In this document: one piece after another, positions 1-7,974 of the stretch
Layout: each line of letters starts with the position of its first letter
Position numbering within the stretch: position 1 is the stretch's first letter
Source of the DNA: a virus
Lineage: Duplodnaviria > Heunggongvirae > Uroviricota > Caudoviricetes
DNA length: 8,113 nt
Virus record (IMG/VR): IMGVR_UViG_2693429779_000008
Direction: 5' to 3' (one strand)
The notes under the pieces: generated by a model
Told to the model about the DNA's origin: nothing
Databases searched by the model: none
The model's input: the letters and a program-made list of their open reading frames with translations, nothing else
Made by a program: the position numbers and the translations under genes

Positions 1-419
1 TCCAGTATCCGGATGGTAAGCCGCCGGTATGGGCAAAGTGTACGAAAGGTGTGTATCCGTCTTACTGGGAAGAATGGAAAAAAGTCAGGGAGGTGGTAAA
101 AGTTGCCTGTCCGGAGTGTGGCGGAAAGGGTGAGGTTTCCACCGCCTGTAAGGATTGCCGTGGGCGTGGTGTCGCCATTCATCGTGAAGAGTCGGTAAAA
201 CGTGGTATGCCTGTTATCAGAGACTGCCAGCGTTGTGGTGGTCGTGGCTATGAAAGACTACCATCAACGGAGGCATTTAATGCTATATGCGAGGTGACAA
301 ACCAGATAACACGCGCGTCATGGGAAAAAACAGTTAAGAAATTCTATGATGCGCTGGTGACCCGGTTTGATATTGAAGAAGCATGGGCTGAGCGGCAGTT
401 AAAAAAGGTAACTAGGTAA
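1..419 (+). CDS. Q-like late-gene antiterminator candidate, 5' partial, with three DnaJ-type CxxCxGxG zinc-finger repeats
   Basis: The reading frame is open from the window start (codons phased from position 3) to TAA at 417-419; the ORF track's start at 51 is only the first in-frame start codon (GTG). Three CxxCxGxG motifs are visible (CPECGGKG, CKDCRGRG, CQRCGGRG). The gene sits immediately upstream of a pR'-like promoter and terminator, as Q does in lambdoid phages. Family assignment is from context and motif, not a search. Confidence 0.5.
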   Translation, partial: QYPDGKPPVWAKCTKGVYPSYWEEWKKVREVVKVACPECGGKGEVSTACKDCRGRGVAIHREESVKRGMPVIRDCQRCGGRGYERLPSTEAFNAICEVTNQITRASWEKTVKKFYDALVTRFDIEEAWAERQLKKVTR

Positions 420-991: not shown

Positions 992-2050
992 ATGCTTAAT
1001 GCTGTAAAAATATCCAGTTGTGAGTTAATCAACGCCGACTGCCTGGAATTTATCCGGTCGTTACCCGAAAATTCTGTTGACCTGATAGTCACGGACCCGC
1101 CGTACTTTAAAGTGAAGCCTGAGGGCTGGGATAACCAGTGGAAGGGCGACGATGATTACCTGAAGTGGCTGGACCAGTGTCTGGCGCAGTTCTGGCGGGT
1201 GCTGAAACCTGCCGGAAGTCTTTACCTGTTCTGTGGTCATCGCCTGGCATCTGATATCGAAATCATGATGCGTGAACGCTTCAGTGTGCTGAACCATATT
1301 ATCTGGGCGAAGCCGTCCGGACGCTGGAACGGATGCAACAAGGAAAGCCTGCGGGCGTATTTCCCCGCCACAGAGCGCATTCTGTTCGCGGAACATTATC
1401 AGGGGCCGTATCGTCCGAAAGATGCCGGGTATGCGGCGAAGGGCAGTGCACTGAAACAGCATGTGATGGCCCCGCTGATTTCTTACTTTCGTGATGCGCG
1501 AGCTGCCCTGGGGATAACGGCAAAACAGATTGCAGATGCCACAGGAAAGAAAAACATGGTGTCGCACTGGTTCAGTGCCGGTCAGTGGCAGTTGCCGAAT
1601 GAAAGCGATTATCTGAAATTACAGGCGCTGTTTGCCCGGGTGGCAGAAGAGAAGCATCGGCGTGGTGAACTGGAAAAGCTCCACCACCAGCTGGTGGATA
1701 CGTATACCTCACTGAACCGGCAGTATGCGGAGCTGCTGAGTGAATATAAACATCTGCGGCGGTATTTTGGCGTGACGGTGCAGGTGCCGTATACCGATGT
1801 GTGGACGCATAAACCGGTGCAGTTCTATCCCGGGAAACATCCGTGCGAAAAACCGGCAGAAATGCTGCAGCAGATAATCAGCGCTAGCAGTCGTCCGGGT
1901 GACCTGATTGCAGATTTTTTCATGGGGTTGGGTTCGACAGTGAAAGCGGCACTGGCGCTCGGGCGTCGTGCAATTGGCGTTGAGCTGGAGACTGAACGTT
2001 TTGAGCAGACGGTTCGGGAAGTACAGGATTTAGTCAGCCAGAACGGATGA
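992..2050 (+). CDS. Orphan DNA methyltransferase, beta-class N6-adenine/N4-cytosine type (352 aa)
   Basis: Catalytic motif IV DPPY (VTDPPYF) lies near the N-terminus and the AdoMet-binding motif I (FFMGLGST...LGRRAIGVELE) near the C-terminus. This IV-before-I order is typical of beta-class amino-MTases common in phages. No adjacent restriction endonuclease gene is visible. Target specificity cannot be read from the sequence. Confidence 0.9.
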   Translation: MLNAVKISSCELINADCLEFIRSLPENSVDLIVTDPPYFKVKPEGWDNQWKGDDDYLKWLDQCLAQFWRVLKPAGSLYLFCGHRLASDIEIMMRERFSVLNHIIWAKPSGRWNGCNKESLRAYFPATERILFAEHYQGPYRPKDAGYAAKGSALKQHVMAPLISYFRDARAALGITAKQIADATGKKNMVSHWFSAGQWQLPNESDYLKLQALFARVAEEKHRRGELEKLHHQLVDTYTSLNRQYAELLSEYKHLRRYFGVTVQVPYTDVWTHKPVQFYPGKHPCEKPAEMLQQIISASSRPGDLIADFFMGLGSTVKAALALGRRAIGVELETERFEQTVREVQDLVSQNG

Positions 2051-2090
2051 TATTGAAGAATTAATTACGCGTCGTTATTATGCGGCTCCC

Positions 2091-2173: not shown

Positions 2174-2250
2174 CCGCCATTAGCTCATCAGGAAAGAGCG
2201 CCAGCCTTCGAAGCTGGCTGCGCGGGGTTCAAGTCCCCGATGGCGGTCCA
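2174..2250 (+). tRNA. argN: tRNA-Arg, anticodon TCG (reads CGA), 77 nt with encoded CCA
   Basis: Hand-folded: acceptor CCGCCAT/ATGGCGG (unusual C1-G72), D-loop ATCAGGAAA, anticodon stem CCAGC/GCTGG with loop CTTCGAA, T-loop TTCAAGT. The symbol is by positional analogy to the ileZ-argN-argO cluster of Stx phages and is not verified. Confidence 0.7.
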
Positions 2251-2263
2251 TTATCTGCATCAT

Positions 2264-2340
2264 GCGTTGTTAGCTCAGCCGGACAGAGCAATTGCCTTCT
2301 AAGCAATCGGTCACTGGTTCGAATCCAGTACAACGCGCCA
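2264..2340 (+). tRNA. argO: tRNA-Arg, anticodon TCT (reads AGA), 77 nt with encoded CCA
   Basis: Hand-folded: acceptor GCGTTGT/ACAACGC, anticodon stem ATTGC/GCAAT with loop CTTCTAA, T-loop TTCGAAT. Symbol by positional analogy. Confidence 0.85.
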
Positions 2341-2354
2341 CACTTATTTTCCCT

Positions 2355-2380
2355 GGCTCGCTTTTGCGGGCCTTTTTTTT
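2355..2380 (+). terminator. Rho-independent terminator after tRNA triplet 1
   Basis: 7-bp stem GGCTCGC/GCGGGCC (one G-U pair) with TTTT loop, followed by eight T residues (2373-2380). Confidence 0.6.
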
Positions 2381-2566
2381 AAATGTCTCACAATTCAGAC
2401 GGTTGACAGTTGTCTGTTTTGCGGGGAGTTTGTTAAAAGAAACTGGCATGGTGAATCCCCCTGTGCGGAGGGGCAATCAGCGAGTAGGTATATGGGATAA
2501 TCGCGGATTCAGGTGCTGGTACTGAATTCACCGGGAGGCACCCGGCATCATGCAATGGCACATAGC
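2381..2566 (+). repeat. Module copy A: TTGACA hexamer, conserved hairpins, ends ...CACATAGC; candidate promoter/leader or structured-RNA unit
   Basis: Near-identical to 3554-3739 and 4501-4686; a diverged homolog lies at 4961-5184. Contains TTGACA (2403-2408), hairpin CCCCT-GTGCGG-AGGGG, and hairpin CCGGG-AGGCA-CCCGG. Followed by the type-1 terminator. Confidence 0.8.
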
Positions 2567-2578
2567 AGAGTTTCTACA

Positions 2579-2601
2579 ACCCGCCGCCGAGCGGGTTTTT
2601 T
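2579..2601 (+). terminator. Rho-independent terminator (second copy of type 1)
   Basis: Same ACCCGC-CGCCGA-GCGGGT hairpin plus T-run as 501-523, including the AGAGTTTCTACA lead-in. Confidence 0.6.
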
Positions 2602-2640
2602 ATTGCGGAATTAATTACGGACCGTTATTATTCTGCTCCC

Positions 2641-2716
2641 GGCCCTTTAGCTCAGTGGTGAGAGCGAGCGACTCATAATCGCCAGGTCGCTGGTTCAAAT
2701 CCAGCAAGGGCCACCA
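2641..2716 (+). tRNA. ileZ: tRNA with CAT anticodon (second copy, identical to 2091-2166)
   Basis: 76 nt identical to the first copy. The upstream spacer GAATTAATTACG...CTCCC is also duplicated with a few substitutions. Confidence 0.85.
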
Positions 2717-2723
2717 TCACAAA

Positions 2724-2803
2724 CCGCCATTAGCTTATCAGGAAGAGCAGACGACATGATAACAGGGTTGTTGGTGCGGGGGCGGGTCCCCGATGGCGGT
2801 CCA
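2724..2803 (+). pseudogene. Degenerate tRNA-like element (paralog of tRNA-Arg TCG with rewritten anticodon and T arms)
   Basis: Acceptor stem CCGCCAT/ATGGCGG and D-arm are retained, but the anticodon region is replaced by about 28 nt that do not form a canonical 5-bp stem with 7-nt loop, and the T-loop is GCGGGT instead of TTCAAGT. Probably non-functional, or a tRNA-derived element. Confidence 0.5.
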
Positions 2804-2816
2804 TTATCGGTATTCA

Positions 2817-2893
2817 GCGTTGTTAGCTCAGCCGGACAGAGCAATTGCCTTCTAAGCAATCGGTCACTGGTTCGAATCCAGTACAGCGCGCCA
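2817..2893 (+). tRNA. argO: tRNA-Arg, anticodon TCT (second copy, one acceptor-stem substitution giving a G-U pair)
   Basis: Same cloverleaf as 2264-2340. The 3' acceptor strand is ACAGCGC rather than ACAACGC. Confidence 0.8.
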
Positions 2894-3003
2894 TATTCAT
2901 TCTTCCAGATTCCTTCCGGCAGAGCCTTATACTGAAATATACCTGGCTCAGGATATTGTTGAAAATATTTTATGTTTGTCAAAAATAAAAGTTCTGTTAA
3001 GTA

Positions 3004-3553: not shown

Positions 3554-3739
3554 AAATACTTCACAATTCAGGCGGTTGACTGTTGTCTGGTTTGCGGGGA
3601 GTTTGTTAAAAGAAACTGGCATGGTGAATCCCCCTGTGCGGAGGGGCAATCAGCGAGTAGGTATATGGGATAATCGCGGATTCAGGTGCTGGTACTGAAT
3701 TCACCGGGAGGCACCCGGCACCATGCAATGGCACATAGC
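3554..3739 (+). repeat. Module copy B (hexamer is TTGACT in this copy)
   Basis: Aligns base-for-base with copy A apart from a few substitutions near the 5' end. Followed by the type-2 terminator. Confidence 0.8.
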
Positions 3740-3749
3740 GCCACTCTCC

Positions 3750-3774
3750 AGCCCCTCTCCGGAGGGGCTGTTTA
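3750..3774 (+). terminator. Rho-independent terminator (type 2)
   Basis: 8-bp stem AGCCCCTC/GAGGGGCT with TCCG loop, then GTTTATATT. Confidence 0.6.
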
Positions 3775-3804
3775 TATTGATTTTGTCAGATGTGAGTAAA
3801 CTCC

Positions 3805-4140: not shown

Positions 4141-4400
4141 TTAGTTTCCTTGTTTATGCCTTGCTGGTGATGTTCTGAAAAGTATAAATGATATTTTTGA
4201 ATGTAAACCATAGAGCAGAATTATTTTTCTGATGTTGTTTATTGTTTATTTAAATGCAGGGTGGTTTATATCTCGTCTTGTAGTTTATCCATGCATATCT
4301 GCTTGATAATCAGGTTTTTATTTAAGGTATGGTTTTGTGTTTTTTCTGTATTACATGTCAGGTATTTTAAAGAATTATTTTTCAGATGGTGGAAAGAACC

Positions 4401-4502
4401 ATGGCATTTAAACACTATGATGTTGTCAGGGCGGCGCCGCCGTCAGATCTTGCGGAAAAGCTGACACATAAACTGAAAGAGGGCTGGCAGCCATTTTTTT
4501 AA
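4401..4502 (+). pseudogene. Truncated paralog of the nanS-p 5' end (first 33 codons of the DUF1737-type N-terminus, then stop)
   Basis: Encodes MAFKHYDVVRAAPPSDLAEKLTHKLKEGWQPFF-stop; the full gene at 5436 begins MAFKHYDVVRAASPSDLAKRLTQKLKEGWQPFG. That is 5 differences in 33 residues. The frame ends where module copy C begins (stop TAA at 4500-4502 made by the junction). Confidence 0.65.
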
Positions 4503-4686
4503 ATGTCTCACAATTCAGACGGTTGACAGTTGTCTGTTTTGCGGGGAGTTTGTTAAAAGAAACTGGCATGGTGAATCCCCCTGTGCGGAGGGGCAATCAG
4601 CGAGTAGGTATATGGGATAATCGCGGATTCAGGTGCTGGTACTGAATTCACCGGGAGGCACCCGGCATCATGCAATGGCACATAGC
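4501..4686 (+). repeat. Module copy C
   Basis: Near-identical to copy A (TTGACA at 4523-4528, same hairpins). Followed by the type-2 terminator. Confidence 0.8.
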
Positions 4687-4696
4687 GCCACTCTCC

Positions 4697-4720
4697 AGCC
4701 CTCTCCGGAGGGGCTTTTCT
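4697..4720 (+). terminator. Rho-independent terminator (type 2, one-base deletion variant)
   Basis: AGCCCTC-TCCG-GAGGGGCT followed by TTTTCT. Confidence 0.5.
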
Positions 4721-4909
4721 GTGCCGGATACATCACAGTTTCTGGAACCTTAGGTACTACAGTATCAGTCAGGGTGCTATATTTTCAGATGTGATGAAAG
4801 CCTGTCAGCAGGCAGGGCGTATCGGAAATGACCCAGTAGAGAAAACGTTGACTCAGATACCGGTGCTGAGTTACCGGGAAACCGGCATCACATGACCGCT
4901 ATCCTTCCA

Positions 4910-4960: not shown

Positions 4961-5184
4961 AAATGCTATGTTGCTCACAATTCAGTAAGTTGACAGTTGC
5001 CTGTCAGACTGGGCATTTGTTAAAAAAATTTCGCATGGTGAATCCCCCTGAGCGGAGGGGCGACTGGTGACGGTATAATCTCTGATTATCAAAACGAGAA
5101 TGACGCGGGTTTAGTGGCACCGGGCTGAACTCACCGGGAGGCACCCGGCACCATGTGCATGATGATACAGATACGCGGCTTTAG
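4961..5184 (+). repeat. Module copy D (diverged homolog of A/B/C)
   Basis: Shares CTCACAATTCAG, TTGACAGTTG, TTTGTTAAAA, CATGGTGAATCCCCCTG-GCGGAGGGG, a TATAAT at the position of TATATG in A-C, and CTCACCGGGAGGCACCCGGCA. Intervening segments differ and include insertions. Confidence 0.7.
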
Positions 5185-5204
5185 CCCCTCTCCGGAGGGG
5201 TTTT
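5185..5204 (+). terminator. Rho-independent terminator (type 2 variant) closing copy D
   Basis: Stem CCCCTC/GAGGGG with TCCG loop, then TTTTCTTGTG. An A7 run plus the GCCCGCG/CGCGGGC hairpin immediately downstream (5214-5242) would act as a terminator for the opposite strand. Confidence 0.55.
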
Positions 5205-5435
5205 CTTGTGGGCAAAAAAAGCCCGCGCTGGGAGACGCGGGCGGCAAGGAATAAACAATAAAACGTGAAGTAATATTTCAGCTGGCGAATAATACCCCAT
5301 AGTAATCACTCTGCGCAACTGCGCGGTCTTTTTCGAATTGCGGGCTGTCGTCTCTCTTCTGCCATTGTCCTGTAACTTCCGGACTTCAGCCCGCTCCTTA
5401 TTTTACTCACAATATTATCCCGGCCGGGAGGATTC

Positions 5436-7289
5436 ATGGCATTTAAACACTATGACGTGGTCAGGGCGGCATCGCCGTCAGACCTTGCGAAACGACTGAC
5501 ACAAAAACTGAAGGAGGGCTGGCAGCCGTTTGGTAGTCCGGTGGCCATAACCCCTTATACCCTGATGCAGGCGATTGCAGCAGAAGGTGATGTGGTCGTC
5601 AGTGGTGCAACTGAGCCGGAGTGGTACTACGTCATCGTACTGGCCGGGCAATCCAATGCCATGGCTTACGGTGAAGGTCTTCCGCTTCCGGATTCATACG
5701 ATGCGCCCCATCCGCGCATTAAGCAACTGGCCCGTCGTAACACAGTGACTCCCGGTGGTGAAGTATGCGTATTTAACGACATCATTCCTGCTGACCATTG
5801 TCTGCATGATGTTCAGGATATGAGTACGATTAACCATCCCCGGGCTGACCTGAGCAAAGGGCAGTACGGCTGTGTCGGACAGGGCTTACATATTGCCAAA
5901 AAACTGCTTCCGTATATCCCTAATAATGCGGGGATCCTGCTGGTACCATGCTGTTGTGGTGGTTCGGCATTCACCCAGGGCACGGAGGGGACATTCAGCG
6001 AGTCCACGGGGGCCAGTCAGGATTCGGCTCGCTGGGGAGTGGGTAAGCCGTTATATCAGGATCTGCTTTTCCGCACGAAGGCAGCATTGCAGAAAAACCC
6101 GAAAAACGTTTTGCTGGCGATATGCTGGATGCAGGGGGAATTCGATATGACGAATGCCAGTTACGCCCAGCAGCCAGCAGCATTTCTTGCAATGGTACAG
6201 CAGTTCCGTGCTGACCTTGCCGGGCTGGCGGCGCAGTGTCACGGTGGAAGTCCGGCATCAGTCCCCTGGATTTGTGGCGACACGACATACGCGTGGAAAC
6301 AAGAACACGGTACGCAATATGAAGTGGTATATGGTGCATATAAAGGTAAAGAATCCCAGCAGATTTATTTTGTTCCCTTTATGACCGATGGTAGCGGAGT
6401 TAATACACCGACAAACAACCCGTCAGAAGATCCTGATATTGCCGGGTCTGGTTATTACGGTTCGGCATCCCGAACGAACAAAAACTGGGTATCATCAAAT
6501 CGCCCGACGCATTTCAGCTCATGGGCGCGTCGTGGCATTATTCCCGATCGTATGGCAACTGCTATTCTGAACGTAGCCGGTCGCACCTTAGCCTTCATTA
6601 GTGGTAAGGCACCGGAAATCAAACCCTCGCCCGGCGGCGACACGCCATCGGGGCCGTCTGAAGATGCATCCATACGCACAATCTCCCTGTTGCCGACAGC
6701 CGGAGACGCTGCTGCGCAGGGCTGGAGCATTAAGAATGGCGGAGTTCAGTTGTCAGATGGTGTATTTAAGATCACCAAGCAGAGCAATAAAGCCTGGTCC
6801 CTGACGCGCCCGGTGGATGACGCAGTCTCCCTGCTGACACGGGGTGGCAGACTGAGCTGTAAGTTTCGACTGTCAGGCGCACTGACCAACAACCAGTTCG
6901 GTCTGGGAATTTATCTGTATACCGATGTAGCGTTACCTGACGTCGTGGCGATGACCGGGACTGGTAACCCGTTCCTGATGTCGTTCTTCACCCAGACCAC
7001 AGACGGCAAACTGAATCTGATGCATCACAAGAAAGCAGGAAACACAAAGTTGGGCGAGTTCGGGAATTACAGTAACGACTGGCTGACGCTGGAGCTGGTG
7101 TTCACCGCCGGCAGTGCCACGGTTACTCCGAAACTGAATGGAGTGGCTGGCCCGGCATTCCAGGTCATAAAAGACAGTCTGACACTGGGGCTGAATGCGC
7201 TGACGCTGACGGATATTACCAAAAATGCAGCGTATGGCGTTGAGATAGAAAGTCTGGTGCTGGAGATAAATGCACCGGCATCATCATAA
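5436..7289 (+). CDS. nanS-p: Prophage NanS-p-type sialate O-acetylesterase (DUF1737 N-terminus, SGNH/SASA esterase core, C-terminal domain of unknown function), 617 aa
   Basis: ATG at 5436 is preceded by GGGAGG. The GQSNA motif carries the SGNH-family catalytic serine. The N-terminus matches the DUF1737 pattern of Stx-prophage esterases that normally lie between the stx/tRNA region and the lysis genes. Recognition-based; no search was run. Confidence 0.9.
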   Translation: MAFKHYDVVRAASPSDLAKRLTQKLKEGWQPFGSPVAITPYTLMQAIAAEGDVVVSGATEPEWYYVIVLAGQSNAMAYGEGLPLPDSYDAPHPRIKQLARRNTVTPGGEVCVFNDIIPADHCLHDVQDMSTINHPRADLSKGQYGCVGQGLHIAKKLLPYIPNNAGILLVPCCCGGSAFTQGTEGTFSESTGASQDSARWGVGKPLYQDLLFRTKAALQKNPKNVLLAICWMQGEFDMTNASYAQQPAAFLAMVQQFRADLAGLAAQCHGGSPASVPWICGDTTYAWKQEHGTQYEVVYGAYKGKESQQIYFVPFMTDGSGVNTPTNNPSEDPDIAGSGYYGSASRTNKNWVSSNRPTHFSSWARRGIIPDRMATAILNVAGRTLAFISGKAPEIKPSPGGDTPSGPSEDASIRTISLLPTAGDAAAQGWSIKNGGVQLSDGVFKITKQSNKAWSLTRPVDDAVSLLTRGGRLSCKFRLSGALTNNQFGLGIYLYTDVALPDVVAMTGTGNPFLMSFFTQTTDGKLNLMHHKKAGNTKLGEFGNYSNDWLTLELVFTAGSATVTPKLNGVAGPAFQVIKDSLTLGLNALTLTDITKNAAYGVEIESLVLEINAPASS

Positions 7290-7374
7290 AAAGTGAGCCA
7301 GCCAAATGGAAGGTATCGTTAAACTCACCGGTAGTGTCAGTGGGTCGTCTGAGATGCCTGCATGAGTTATCAGA

Positions 7375-7404
7375 GCCATCAGTACTTAACTGGTGGCTTT
7401 TTTT
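7375..7404 (+). terminator. Rho-independent terminator downstream of nanS-p
   Basis: Stem GCCATCAG/CTGGTGGC (one G-U pair) with loop TACTTAA, then TTTTTTT (7398-7404). Confidence 0.6.
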
Positions 7405-7439
7405 ATTGTTGTCAGCTTCCGGATAACGGGAGACGGGGT

Positions 7440-7655
7440 ATGTACCAGATGGAAAAAATCACAACAGGTGTGTCATACACCACGTCAGCGGTGGGAACGG
7501 GCTACTGGTTCCTGCAGTTGCTGGACAGGGTTTCCCCGTCTCAGTGGGCGGCAATAGGCGTGCTGGGGAGTCTGCTGTTTGGGCTGCTGACATATCTGAC
7601 TAACCTGTATTTCAAAATCAGAGAGGACCGTCGTAAGGCTGCACGGGGAGAGTAA
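7440..7655 (+). CDS. S: Class II pinholin, phage 21 S-type, with dual start motif (MYQM...)
   Basis: GGAGACGGGG Shine-Dalgarno precedes ATG 7440, with a second in-frame ATG at 7449, matching the antiholin/holin dual start of S21. The sequence ...[51 protein letters not shown] matches S21 as recalled. The ORF track's longer ORF from 7362 runs through the upstream terminator and is unlikely to be translated. Confidence 0.85.
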
Positions 7656-7659
7656 TTCA

Positions 7660-7974
7660 ATGACTCAAAACTATGAACTGATTGTGAAAGGGATCCGCAA
7701 TTTTGAGAATAAAGTTACGGTAACTTTAGCGTTACGGGACAAAAAACGCTTTGACGGTGAAATTTTTGACCTGGACATCTCGCTGGACCGTGTTGAAGGT
7801 GCCGCGCTGGAGTTTTATGAGGCAGCAGCCAGAAGGAGCATCAGACAGGTCTTCTTGGATGTTGCTGCCGGGTTATGTGAAGGGGACGAGCTGTTGCCAG
7901 AAACGCGCCCCTGTTCAGAGGCGCGGTATACCATAAAAATTAACAGTTCTGATAACTCGATTACGGGTTGTTAG
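7660..7974 (+). CDS. Hypothetical lysis-cassette protein (104 aa) between holin and endolysin
   Basis: ATG at 7660 is preceded by GGGGAGAG that overlaps the holin stop. Acidic, soluble-looking sequence. I recall similar small ORFs (possibly DUF1327) in this position in E. coli prophages, but cannot verify. Confidence 0.55.
   Translation: MTQNYELIVKGIRNFENKVTVTLALRDKKRFDGEIFDLDISLDRVEGAALEFYEAAARRSIRQVFLDVAAGLCEGDELLPETRPCSEARYTIKINSSDNSITGC

Follow-up and report, generated by a model that had tools for sequence, protein, structure and literature searches.

What occupies the middle position of a repeated tRNA triplet in an Escherichia coli-type lambdoid prophage, and how did it get there? The window analyzed here, i.e. 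the whole stretch of 8,113 nucleotides (nt) from IMG/VR virus record IMGVR_UViG_2693429779_000008, represents the late regulatory region of such a prophage, and 88% of it can be aligned, at approximately 97% identity, with the nearest complete E. coli genomes. Rfam distinguished four STnc100 sRNA units in the window. The triplet ileZ(CAU)-argN(UCG)-argO(UCU), located at 2051–2353, is repeated at 2601–2906, downstream of the gene for the Q antiterminator, a position in which lambdoid prophages carry an ileZ-X-argO mini-operon. A preliminary description of this DNA had proposed that the middle member of the second triplet is either a decaying pseudogene or a tRNA-derived element with a new role. 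Features of the window are summarized in Table 1.

Table 1. Features of the analyzed window (positions in nt; basis of each assignment where reported).
Feature	Position	Strand	Basis and remarks
Antiterminator Q, C-terminus	51–419		
DNA methylase	992–2050		
Sigma-70-like promoter, TTGAAG-17 nt-TATTAT	2053–2081	+	Consensus scan; just 5′ of triplet 1
ileZ copy 1, CAU anticodon	2091–2166	+	ARAGORN Met/Ile(CAT); Rfam 72.5 bits; homologues are tRNA-Ile in PGAP
argN, intact tRNA-Arg(UCG), canonical middle-slot occupant	2174–2250	+	ARAGORN; Rfam 58.0 bits; clean cloverleaf, z = −2.85
argO copy 1, tRNA-Arg(UCU)	2264–2340	+	ARAGORN; Rfam 70.1 bits
Intrinsic-terminator-like hairpin and T run	2355–2380	+	Scan; 3′ of triplet 1
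STnc100-family sRNA unit	2417–2608	+	Rfam 119 bits; own terminator at 2578–2597; between the two triplets
Promoter-like leader of triplet 2, TTGCGG-17 nt-TATTAT	2603–2631	+	Homologous to 2053–2081 by alignment; putative promoter role
ileZ copy 2	2641–2716	+	ARAGORN CAT; Rfam 72.5 bits; identical to copy 1
Variant middle element, 80 nt, putative tRNA pseudogene with Lys(UUU)-like arm on argN-type acceptor stem	2724–2803	+	
Extra 8 nt, AGACGACA, between D stem and arm	2749–2756	+	Fold; alignment with the paralogue lineage
Arm (C/T)GATAAC-AGG-GTTGTTG, hairpin with 3-nt loop	2757–2773	+	Descended from the Lys(UUU)-like paralogues of the slot
T arm: stem CGGGG 2777–2781/CCCCG 2788–2792, loop 2782–2787	2777–2792	+	
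3′ acceptor strand ATGGCGG, discriminator T, encoded CCA	2793–2803	+	Identical to argN
argO copy 2, tRNA-Arg(UCU)	2817–2893	+	ARAGORN; Rfam 68.0 bits
SASA/DUF1737 esterase	5436–7289		
P21-type holin	7362–7655		
DUF1327	7660–7974		

The repetition of the triplet and the conservation of its flanking tRNAs, both reported in the preliminary description, were confirmed by alignment. Two blocks of similarity were found (2051–2194 versus 2601–2744, with 94% identity, and 2233–2353 versus 2786–2906, with 91% identity). The members of the first pair lie 550 nt apart and those of the second 553 nt, and therefore the 3-nt length difference lies within the middle gene. The two ileZ copies do not differ at all, while the argO copies are distinguished by a single acceptor position, at which an A-U pair is replaced by a wobble-compatible G·U pair. 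The middle element is separated from ileZ by 7 nt and from argO by 13 nt. The promoter-like leader preceding the second triplet was not flagged by the promoter scan because of its weak −35 hexamer, and nothing was flagged by the promoter and terminator scan within the element itself. An ORF of 59 codons (2756–2935) passes through argO. Its ATG codon is created by a C-to-T change at position 2757, which is private to the window (all other copies have C), and the ORF has no Pfam match.

The middle element shares with argN the position within the array, the CCGCCAT/ATGGCGG acceptor stem and the TCCA tail; the UCG arm of argN (GCCAGC/GCUGGC) is missing. The block that truly differs between the two extends approximately from 2745 to 2787, and the sequence from the D stem to the T stem of the variant is AGACGACATGATAACAGGGTTGTTGGTG. 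RNAfold yields a cloverleaf with a 7-bp acceptor stem, a 4-bp D stem, a 6-bp stem (GACGAC/GUUGUU) closing an 11-nt loop, and a 5-bp T stem. The first two stems are those that had already been described as retained. In the 6-bp stem the extra 8 nt, acting as a second 5′ strand, pair with GTTGTT (2767–2772). AGACGAC and CGATAAC thus compete as 5′ strands for a single 3′ strand, GTTGTT, and the alternative hairpin CGAUAAC-AGG-GUUGUUG has nearly the same energy as the cloverleaf arm, so that the most stable fold differs by allele. The energy of the cloverleaf of the variant is indistinguishable from that of shuffled sequence (z = −0.97, compared with −2.85 for intact argN). No direct or inverted repeat of the remodelled segment was found elsewhere in the window.

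While the acceptor, D and T stems can pair and CCA is encoded, neither of the loops that characterize a functional tRNA is present. The anticodon loop, for which we required 7 nt with U33 and a purine at position 37, has 11 nt (AUGAUAACAGG) in the cloverleaf and 3 nt (AGG) in the hairpin. The T loop, for which the 7-nt pattern T54-Ψ55-C56…A58 served as a reference, is the 6-nt GCGGGT; it replaces TTCAAGT, lacks the TTCRA consensus and lies within a G run that varies between copies.

None of the detection tools recognized the element. ARAGORN, which the preliminary description had put forward as a check on both triplets, called the first triplet completely and left the middle of the second one uncalled; the 13 variant alleles likewise went uncalled. 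The Rfam tRNA model (RF00005, gathering threshold 29 bits) gave no match to 2700–2830 even at E ≤ 10, while the neighbouring tRNAs scored 58–72.5 bits. A permissive scan against any Rfam family returned only chance-level matches to unrelated eukaryotic families (E of approximately 3). ARAGORN and Rfam also rule out that the element is a normal tRNA whose long variable arm had been folded incorrectly. PGAP, whose tRNA calls are taken from tRNAscan-SE, places no feature under the element among the matches listed in the search that retrieved 1231 genomes (see below) or in the two annotated loci that were read: in E. coli 042 and isolate AF39 a tRNA-Ile and a tRNA-Arg are annotated with a gap between them. 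The record of phage phiP27 likewise annotates ileZ and argO only, and that of Yersinia phage YeP1 labels its homologue tRNA-Pseudo-TTG. Wherever it was checked, i.e. among the matches listed and in the loci read, the variant element is an unannotated tRNA relic.

According to the preliminary description, the anticodon and T arms had been replaced by unrelated sequence. This could not be upheld. The T stem is kept, the T loop departs from a normal one by point changes whose intermediate forms occur in other arrays, and the replacing sequence is homologous to the arm of a paralogue that occupies the same slot. Other occupants of the slot were sought in IMG/VR and in metagenomes, and a paralogue lineage was distinguished with the scaffold CCGCCAY…RTGGCGG and an arm composed of CGATAAC, a loop and GTTGTA, followed by GGTG. 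In the IMG metagenome loci L295–L300 the arm is CGATAACCATTTAAGTTGTAGGTG with the loop CAUUUAA, called Lys-UUU by ARAGORN and scored at 32.5 bits by Rfam. Loci L265 and L290 carry the arm CGATAACCTGAGGTTGTAGGTG with the loop CUGAG (Rfam 33.4 bits), L292 has the loop CUUGAG, and phage YeP1 has the arm CGATAACCATTGCCGTTGTAGGTG with the loop CAUUGCC. The arm strands CGATAAC/GTTGT and the GGTG variable region of the variant are those of this lineage (alignment A2). Its D loop of 8 nt is also found there, but only in L295–L300; the loop-damaged relatives L265, L290 and L292 and phage YeP1 have 9 nt. The paralogues possess a single 5′ strand, loops of 5–7 nt and a normal T loop, and score 32–33 bits in Rfam, whereas the variant has the additional 8 nt upstream of the arm, a loop of 3 or 11 nt in place of the 7-nt UUU loop, now reduced to AGG, and no Rfam score.

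In an alignment of 16 sequences of this family, the acceptor, anticodon and T stems are paired in 94% of the cells, changes on both sides were found in all three helices, and the 6-bp stem of the variant stands in the register of the anticodon stem. Only about 0.2% of shuffled sequences give such a stem, and it therefore descends from a true anticodon stem and did not form anew. Only five of eight positions agree between the 5′ strands AGACGACA and CGATAACA, and the extra 8 nt may have arisen by tandem duplication or by recombination between alleles. A segment similar to AGACGACA was found in locus L046 (AGGCAGCA), which has the first strand only. Locus L106, with a TTGCTT/AAGTAA stem and a loop containing ACAGG, was rejected as evidence of covariation: its homology with the arm of the variant is unconvincing, ARAGORN folds it otherwise and it lies below the Rfam threshold.

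The remodelled segment is widespread. A 60-mer covering it was found by megablast in 1231 of the 5426 complete E. coli genomes (approximately 23%), at 1363 places, and the variant is about as common as intact argN, which was detected in at least 1001 genomes by the same method. The triplet containing the variant follows Q in E. coli 042 and a methylase gene in isolate AF39. Phage mEp460 has a 99% identical copy, and the Stx2e phage phiP27 (AJ298298) has a 91% identical form with the remodelled arm AGACGACACGATAACAGGGTTGTTGGTG. The presence of the variant in other prophages, which had been named earlier as a point to be checked, is thereby established, and phiP27 supplies what appears to be an earlier state. 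In a scan of one genome per species five arrays were found, and the variant occurred only in the E. coli representative; its absence from the other species is weak evidence, because only arrays with exact ileZ and argO anchors could be recovered.

The spacers TCACAAA and TTATCGGTATTCA go together with the variant, and it is exactly by these spacers that the two copies in the window differ. In most other prophages the variant triplet is preceded by STnc100 sequence, and in about 70 of the 120 sampled arrays the 50 nt upstream of it are the STnc100 terminator sequence. Both alleles also occur on two further IMG/VR contigs, 1.5 kb apart in L091 and 3 kb apart in L101, while the colinear 550-nt tandem arrangement was found in none of the complete E. 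coli genomes. The variant circulates as an allele among prophages and was not made by remodelling within this genome, and the tandem in the window appears to reflect recombination that joined two alternative modules, methylase-triplet and STnc100-triplet.

This leaves little of the earlier proposal that the triplet was duplicated locally and one copy then remodelled, since the variant triplet with its linked spacers already occurs singly in 1231 genomes and in isolated phages. It is highly improbable that the second triplet results from a recent duplication within this genome followed by local remodelling, or from an assembly artefact joining two prophages, even though the lack of a colinear counterpart of the tandem among complete genomes speaks in favour of such an event. 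Besides the single occurrences, the two copies in the window differ in spacers and flanks exactly as the circulating alleles do, and both alleles also meet on L091 and L101. Origin by remodelling in this genome can be regarded as already refuted. That both reader and software mis-folded a tRNA which truly decodes through an expanded anticodon loop is extremely improbable. A cloverleaf with four stems can be drawn, and ARAGORN does call relatives with odd loops (L046, L106, L084 and L265), but the loop of 11 or 3 nt provides no U33-NNN-R37, the 6-nt T loop has no TTCRA, Rfam and ARAGORN remain silent as described above, and the three loop positions on which decoding would depend are polymorphic (ACG, ACC, GCG, ATG). 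A decoding role is therefore essentially refuted.

Variation among copies is informative with respect to the remaining explanations. We sampled 120 copies of the variant using a 5′ anchor only (some other samples were anchored inside the element), and these represent 13 haplotypes. The G run varies from +1 to +6. Besides these length changes, the common polymorphisms are ACG, ACC or GCG at three adjacent loop positions, where ATG was also seen, and replacement of G by C or T in the T loop. Alleles that break the acceptor, T or arm stem are rare: ATGACGG (n = 3), ATGGCGA (n = 5), CCCC to CCC by a deletion in the T stem (n = 1) and GGGTTGTT to GGGGTGTT (n = 1). No compensatory change was seen in the variant among the 120 copies; in the same arrays ileZ is almost invariant and argO has a compensatory T-stem allele. 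More than 90% of the copies have unbroken acceptor, D and T stems, and all polymorphisms of intermediate frequency fall in loops. Allele counts are not counts of independent events, because the copies are related and recombine. The four stem events compared with approximately eight loop events show no significant departure from neutral expectation at this low divergence and with non-independent copies, and the excess of loop over stem changes is not statistically decisive because divergence is low. Relaxed constraint is suggested by the uncompensated stem breaks, the slipping G run and the decay of the slot in other arrays, although most copies keep their stems. Selection for an RNA that folds and can be processed could also leave such a pattern of intact stems and variable loops.

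The state of the slot was also compared among arrays. Among 177 of them, argN is intact in 38% and damaged in 25%, and the variant arm is present in 37%. A 66-nt derivative without an anticodon arm was found in a further 30 arrays, and the middle slot is empty in one; clean deletion is rare in the sample. The middle slot turns over unusually fast, being damaged, deleted or empty in most of the sampled arrays, in which ileZ and argO are intact. The variant arm is combined with the T loop TTCGAGT in phiP27 and L141, and the reverse combination, i.e. an intact UCG arm with the loop GGCGGGT, occurs in L030. Among the arrays the T loops form the series TTCAAGT, TTCGAGT, TTCGGGT, GTCGGGT and GGCGGGT.

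The best explanation of these observations, to which we assign a probability of roughly 0.7, is that the element at 2724–2803 is a non-decoding tRNA pseudogene hitch-hiking between two retained tRNAs. Clear descent from a tRNA is combined in it with the loss of decoding features, the combination that defines a pseudogene. The earlier view of a decaying pseudogene thus gains support from the lack of a usable anticodon loop and of the T-loop consensus, from the failure of all detectors tried, from the length changes in the poly-G run, from the uncompensated stem-breaking alleles and from the poor state of this slot in most related prophage arrays. The element would be a mosaic, with the acceptor stem, the encoded CCA and the flanking spacers derived from an argN-type slot, and the 8-nt D loop, the strands of the anticodon arm and the GGTG variable region derived from a tRNA-Lys(UUU)-like paralogue. 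Decay may have proceeded in two steps, their order being read from the alleles: the anticodon arm would have been wrecked first, leaving a normal T loop, a state seen in phiP27 and L141, and subsequent decay of the T loop, which lies in an unstable G run, to GCGGGT would have produced the common E. coli allele, which is also that of the window. Co-transcription with ileZ and argO is probable, either from the promoter-like leader or as part of Q-antiterminated late transcription. The element may be excised by RNase P and 3′ trimming, because it has kept the acceptor/T-stem helix and CCA; the excised RNA would then presumably be neither charged nor able to decode. Its persistence could be explained by its size (80 nt only), its position wedged between two tRNAs kept by the phage, and its spread by module recombination among prophages.

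Two other readings grant the element a function of its own. It is unlikely that it is a selected non-decoding processing module, a folded unit that lets RNase P, cutting at the 5′ end of the element, and then exonuclease trimming release mature ileZ and argO from a polycistronic precursor. An acceptor/T-stem minihelix is a sufficient substrate for RNase P, and this enzyme cuts apart the products of some E. coli tRNA operons. The 7-bp acceptor stem, the 5-bp T stem and CCA are intact in the window as well as in over 90% of the copies, with freely varying loops; the spacers are very short, and empty slots are rare. However, the 66-nt derivative of the 30 arrays, with neither an anticodon arm nor an undamaged T arm, lies beside intact ileZ and argO, and in L289 ileZ is followed by the next tRNA after 1 nt with no middle element. 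The stem-breaking alleles are uncompensated, and RNase P recognizes argO directly. Less probable still is a tRNA-like RNA with a new function, e.g. a decoy or sponge for a tRNA-targeting defence nuclease, a toxin or a tRNA-binding enzyme, which would exploit the tRNA body and have no use in translation. The element is very widespread, and its slot holds tRNAs of anti-defence type, namely Lys(UUU)-like genes without U33, with Thr(UGU) genes adjoining in related arrays. Phage tRNA-Lys(UUU) of the T5 type rescues cells from PARIS AriB, and tRNA-Thr(UGU) of the lambdoid phage 21 rescues them from P2-OLD (PMC12445682); rescue from tRNA nucleases by phage tRNAs is also described in a further source (PMC10264068). 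On the other hand, the T loop, needed for the L-shape that most tRNA-binding proteins read, is decayed and variable in length, the alleles have no single stable fold, the variant lineage shows no covariation, no Rfam tRNA-like family matches, and no complementary partner is present in the window.

The array can be compared with known systems. Clusters of ileZ-argN-argO are known from Stx and other lambdoid phages (argN is annotated in Stx2a phages), where they are situated downstream of Q or a methylase gene and upstream of lysis or stx genes, as in the window. Their ileZ and argO are identical or nearly identical to those of the window, and their middle gene has the acceptor stem and encoded CCA found in the window, whereas the second triplet of the window lacks the UCG anticodon arm and a functional T loop. 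The form present in phiP27 differs from that of the window in its canonical TTCGAGT T loop, its GCTC D stem and one T-stem mismatch, and it seems to represent an earlier or recombinant state. A limited literature search on ileZ, argN and argO yielded nothing useful. Naming the relic in annotations would prevent it from being described repeatedly as a novel tRNA-like element and would avoid spurious ORF calls. The array constitutes a clean natural case of unequal selection on neighbouring phage tRNAs, with ileZ and argO held and the middle gene swapped, damaged, deleted and lost repeatedly.

Like the Y-RNA-like YrlA, mascRNA and viral tRNA-like structures, the element has a tRNA-derived body in which a module foreign to tRNAs takes the place of the anticodon arm, but it matches none of these Rfam families. 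A weak YrlA match in L290 (24.7 bits, threshold 69) spans two adjacent tRNAs. Anti-defence tRNAs of phages provide another parallel. They are borne on arrays and their anticodon arms have diverged from those of the host, and the same anticodons occur in or next to the slot in related arrays; these tRNAs decode, whereas the element of the window cannot. This parallel suggests that the turnover of the slot may come about because its occupants help only against certain defences of the host. It is rather unlikely, though, that the slot is a fast-turnover cassette of anti-defence tRNAs (Arg(UCG), Arg(UCU) and Lys(UUU)-like without U33) in which the variant is kept as a decoy or processing scaffold. 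Loops without U33 could evade anticodon nucleases, and the Lys(UUU)-like occupants with A33 or C33 are better candidates for nuclease-resistant tRNAs than the variant element.

Four full-length units of the STnc100 sRNA family (Rfam) are located in a 2.8-kb part of the window. In front of every unit lies a conserved leader (repeat families D1, D2 and D8), approximately 40 nt long, with the sequence TTGACA, and every unit ends with its own terminator. Within L106, another locus with a related tRNA array, six STnc100 matches occupy 1.5 kb, and the clusters at both sites look like tandem amplifications of late-promoter/sRNA units. Downstream of the tRNA array of a further locus, L258, an STnc100 unit (2620-2809) is directly adjoined on the opposite strand by a match to the AgvB (anti-GcvB) sRNA (2558-2619).

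Features distinguished within the window
Feature	Coordinates	Strand	Remarks
ORF of 59 codons	2756-2935	+	ATG start arising from a C-to-T substitution at 2757
STnc100 unit	2417-2608		full-length (Rfam)
STnc100 unit	3590-3779		full-length (Rfam)
STnc100 unit	4537-4726		full-length (Rfam)
STnc100 unit	5004-5213		full-length (Rfam)
Terminator hairpin, two copies	485-532 and 2563-2610		92% identity
Direct repeat, two copies	4391-4496 and 5426-5531		85% identity

One copy of the terminator hairpin lies just 3′ of the antiterminator gene Q and the other at the 3′ terminus of the first STnc100 unit, an arrangement that fits recombination of a Q-STnc100-triplet module with a methylase-triplet module. 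The SASA/DUF1737 esterase ORF begins within the direct repeat, in its second copy; the first copy, about 1 kb upstream, points to a truncated, additional 5′ end of the esterase gene.

The short ORF beginning in the probable tRNA pseudogene of the second ileZ-X-argO triplet is almost certainly spurious, since it reads through the second copy of argO [tRNA-Arg(UCU)] and has no match in Pfam. Its start codon is private to the window, as all other copies of the pseudogene carry ACG, ACC or GCG at this position.

Variation was also observed in the flanking tRNA genes. Among approximately 110 copies of argO scored in IMG/VR arrays linked to the variant pseudogene, the encoded 3′ CCA is changed to CTA in 19. 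A further allele, represented by 17 copies, has a compensatory change in the T-stem (CACTGG/CCAGT to CAGTGG/CCACT). A heavily diverged ileZ-like gene, not called by ARAGORN, is present approximately 80 nt upstream of the middle element in loci L046 and L196; in some lineages, therefore, decay extends beyond the middle slot.

The slot between ileZ and argO has other occupants. A second, independent class of pseudogene was found in 30 IMG/VR loci, among them L258. This derivative measures 66 nt; its anticodon arm is missing entirely, and its acceptor stem, CCGCCAC/GTGGCGG, is kept. The scaffold of argN, the middle gene of the first triplet, underlies tRNA-Lys(UUU)-like genes in L295-L300 (e.g. 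L297, 5396-5472) and L294 (601-674). Their anticodon loops, CAUUUAA (A33; Rfam 32.5 bits) and CCUUUAA (C33; 44.4 bits), lack the near-universal U33, and these genes may encode decoders resistant to anticodon nucleases.
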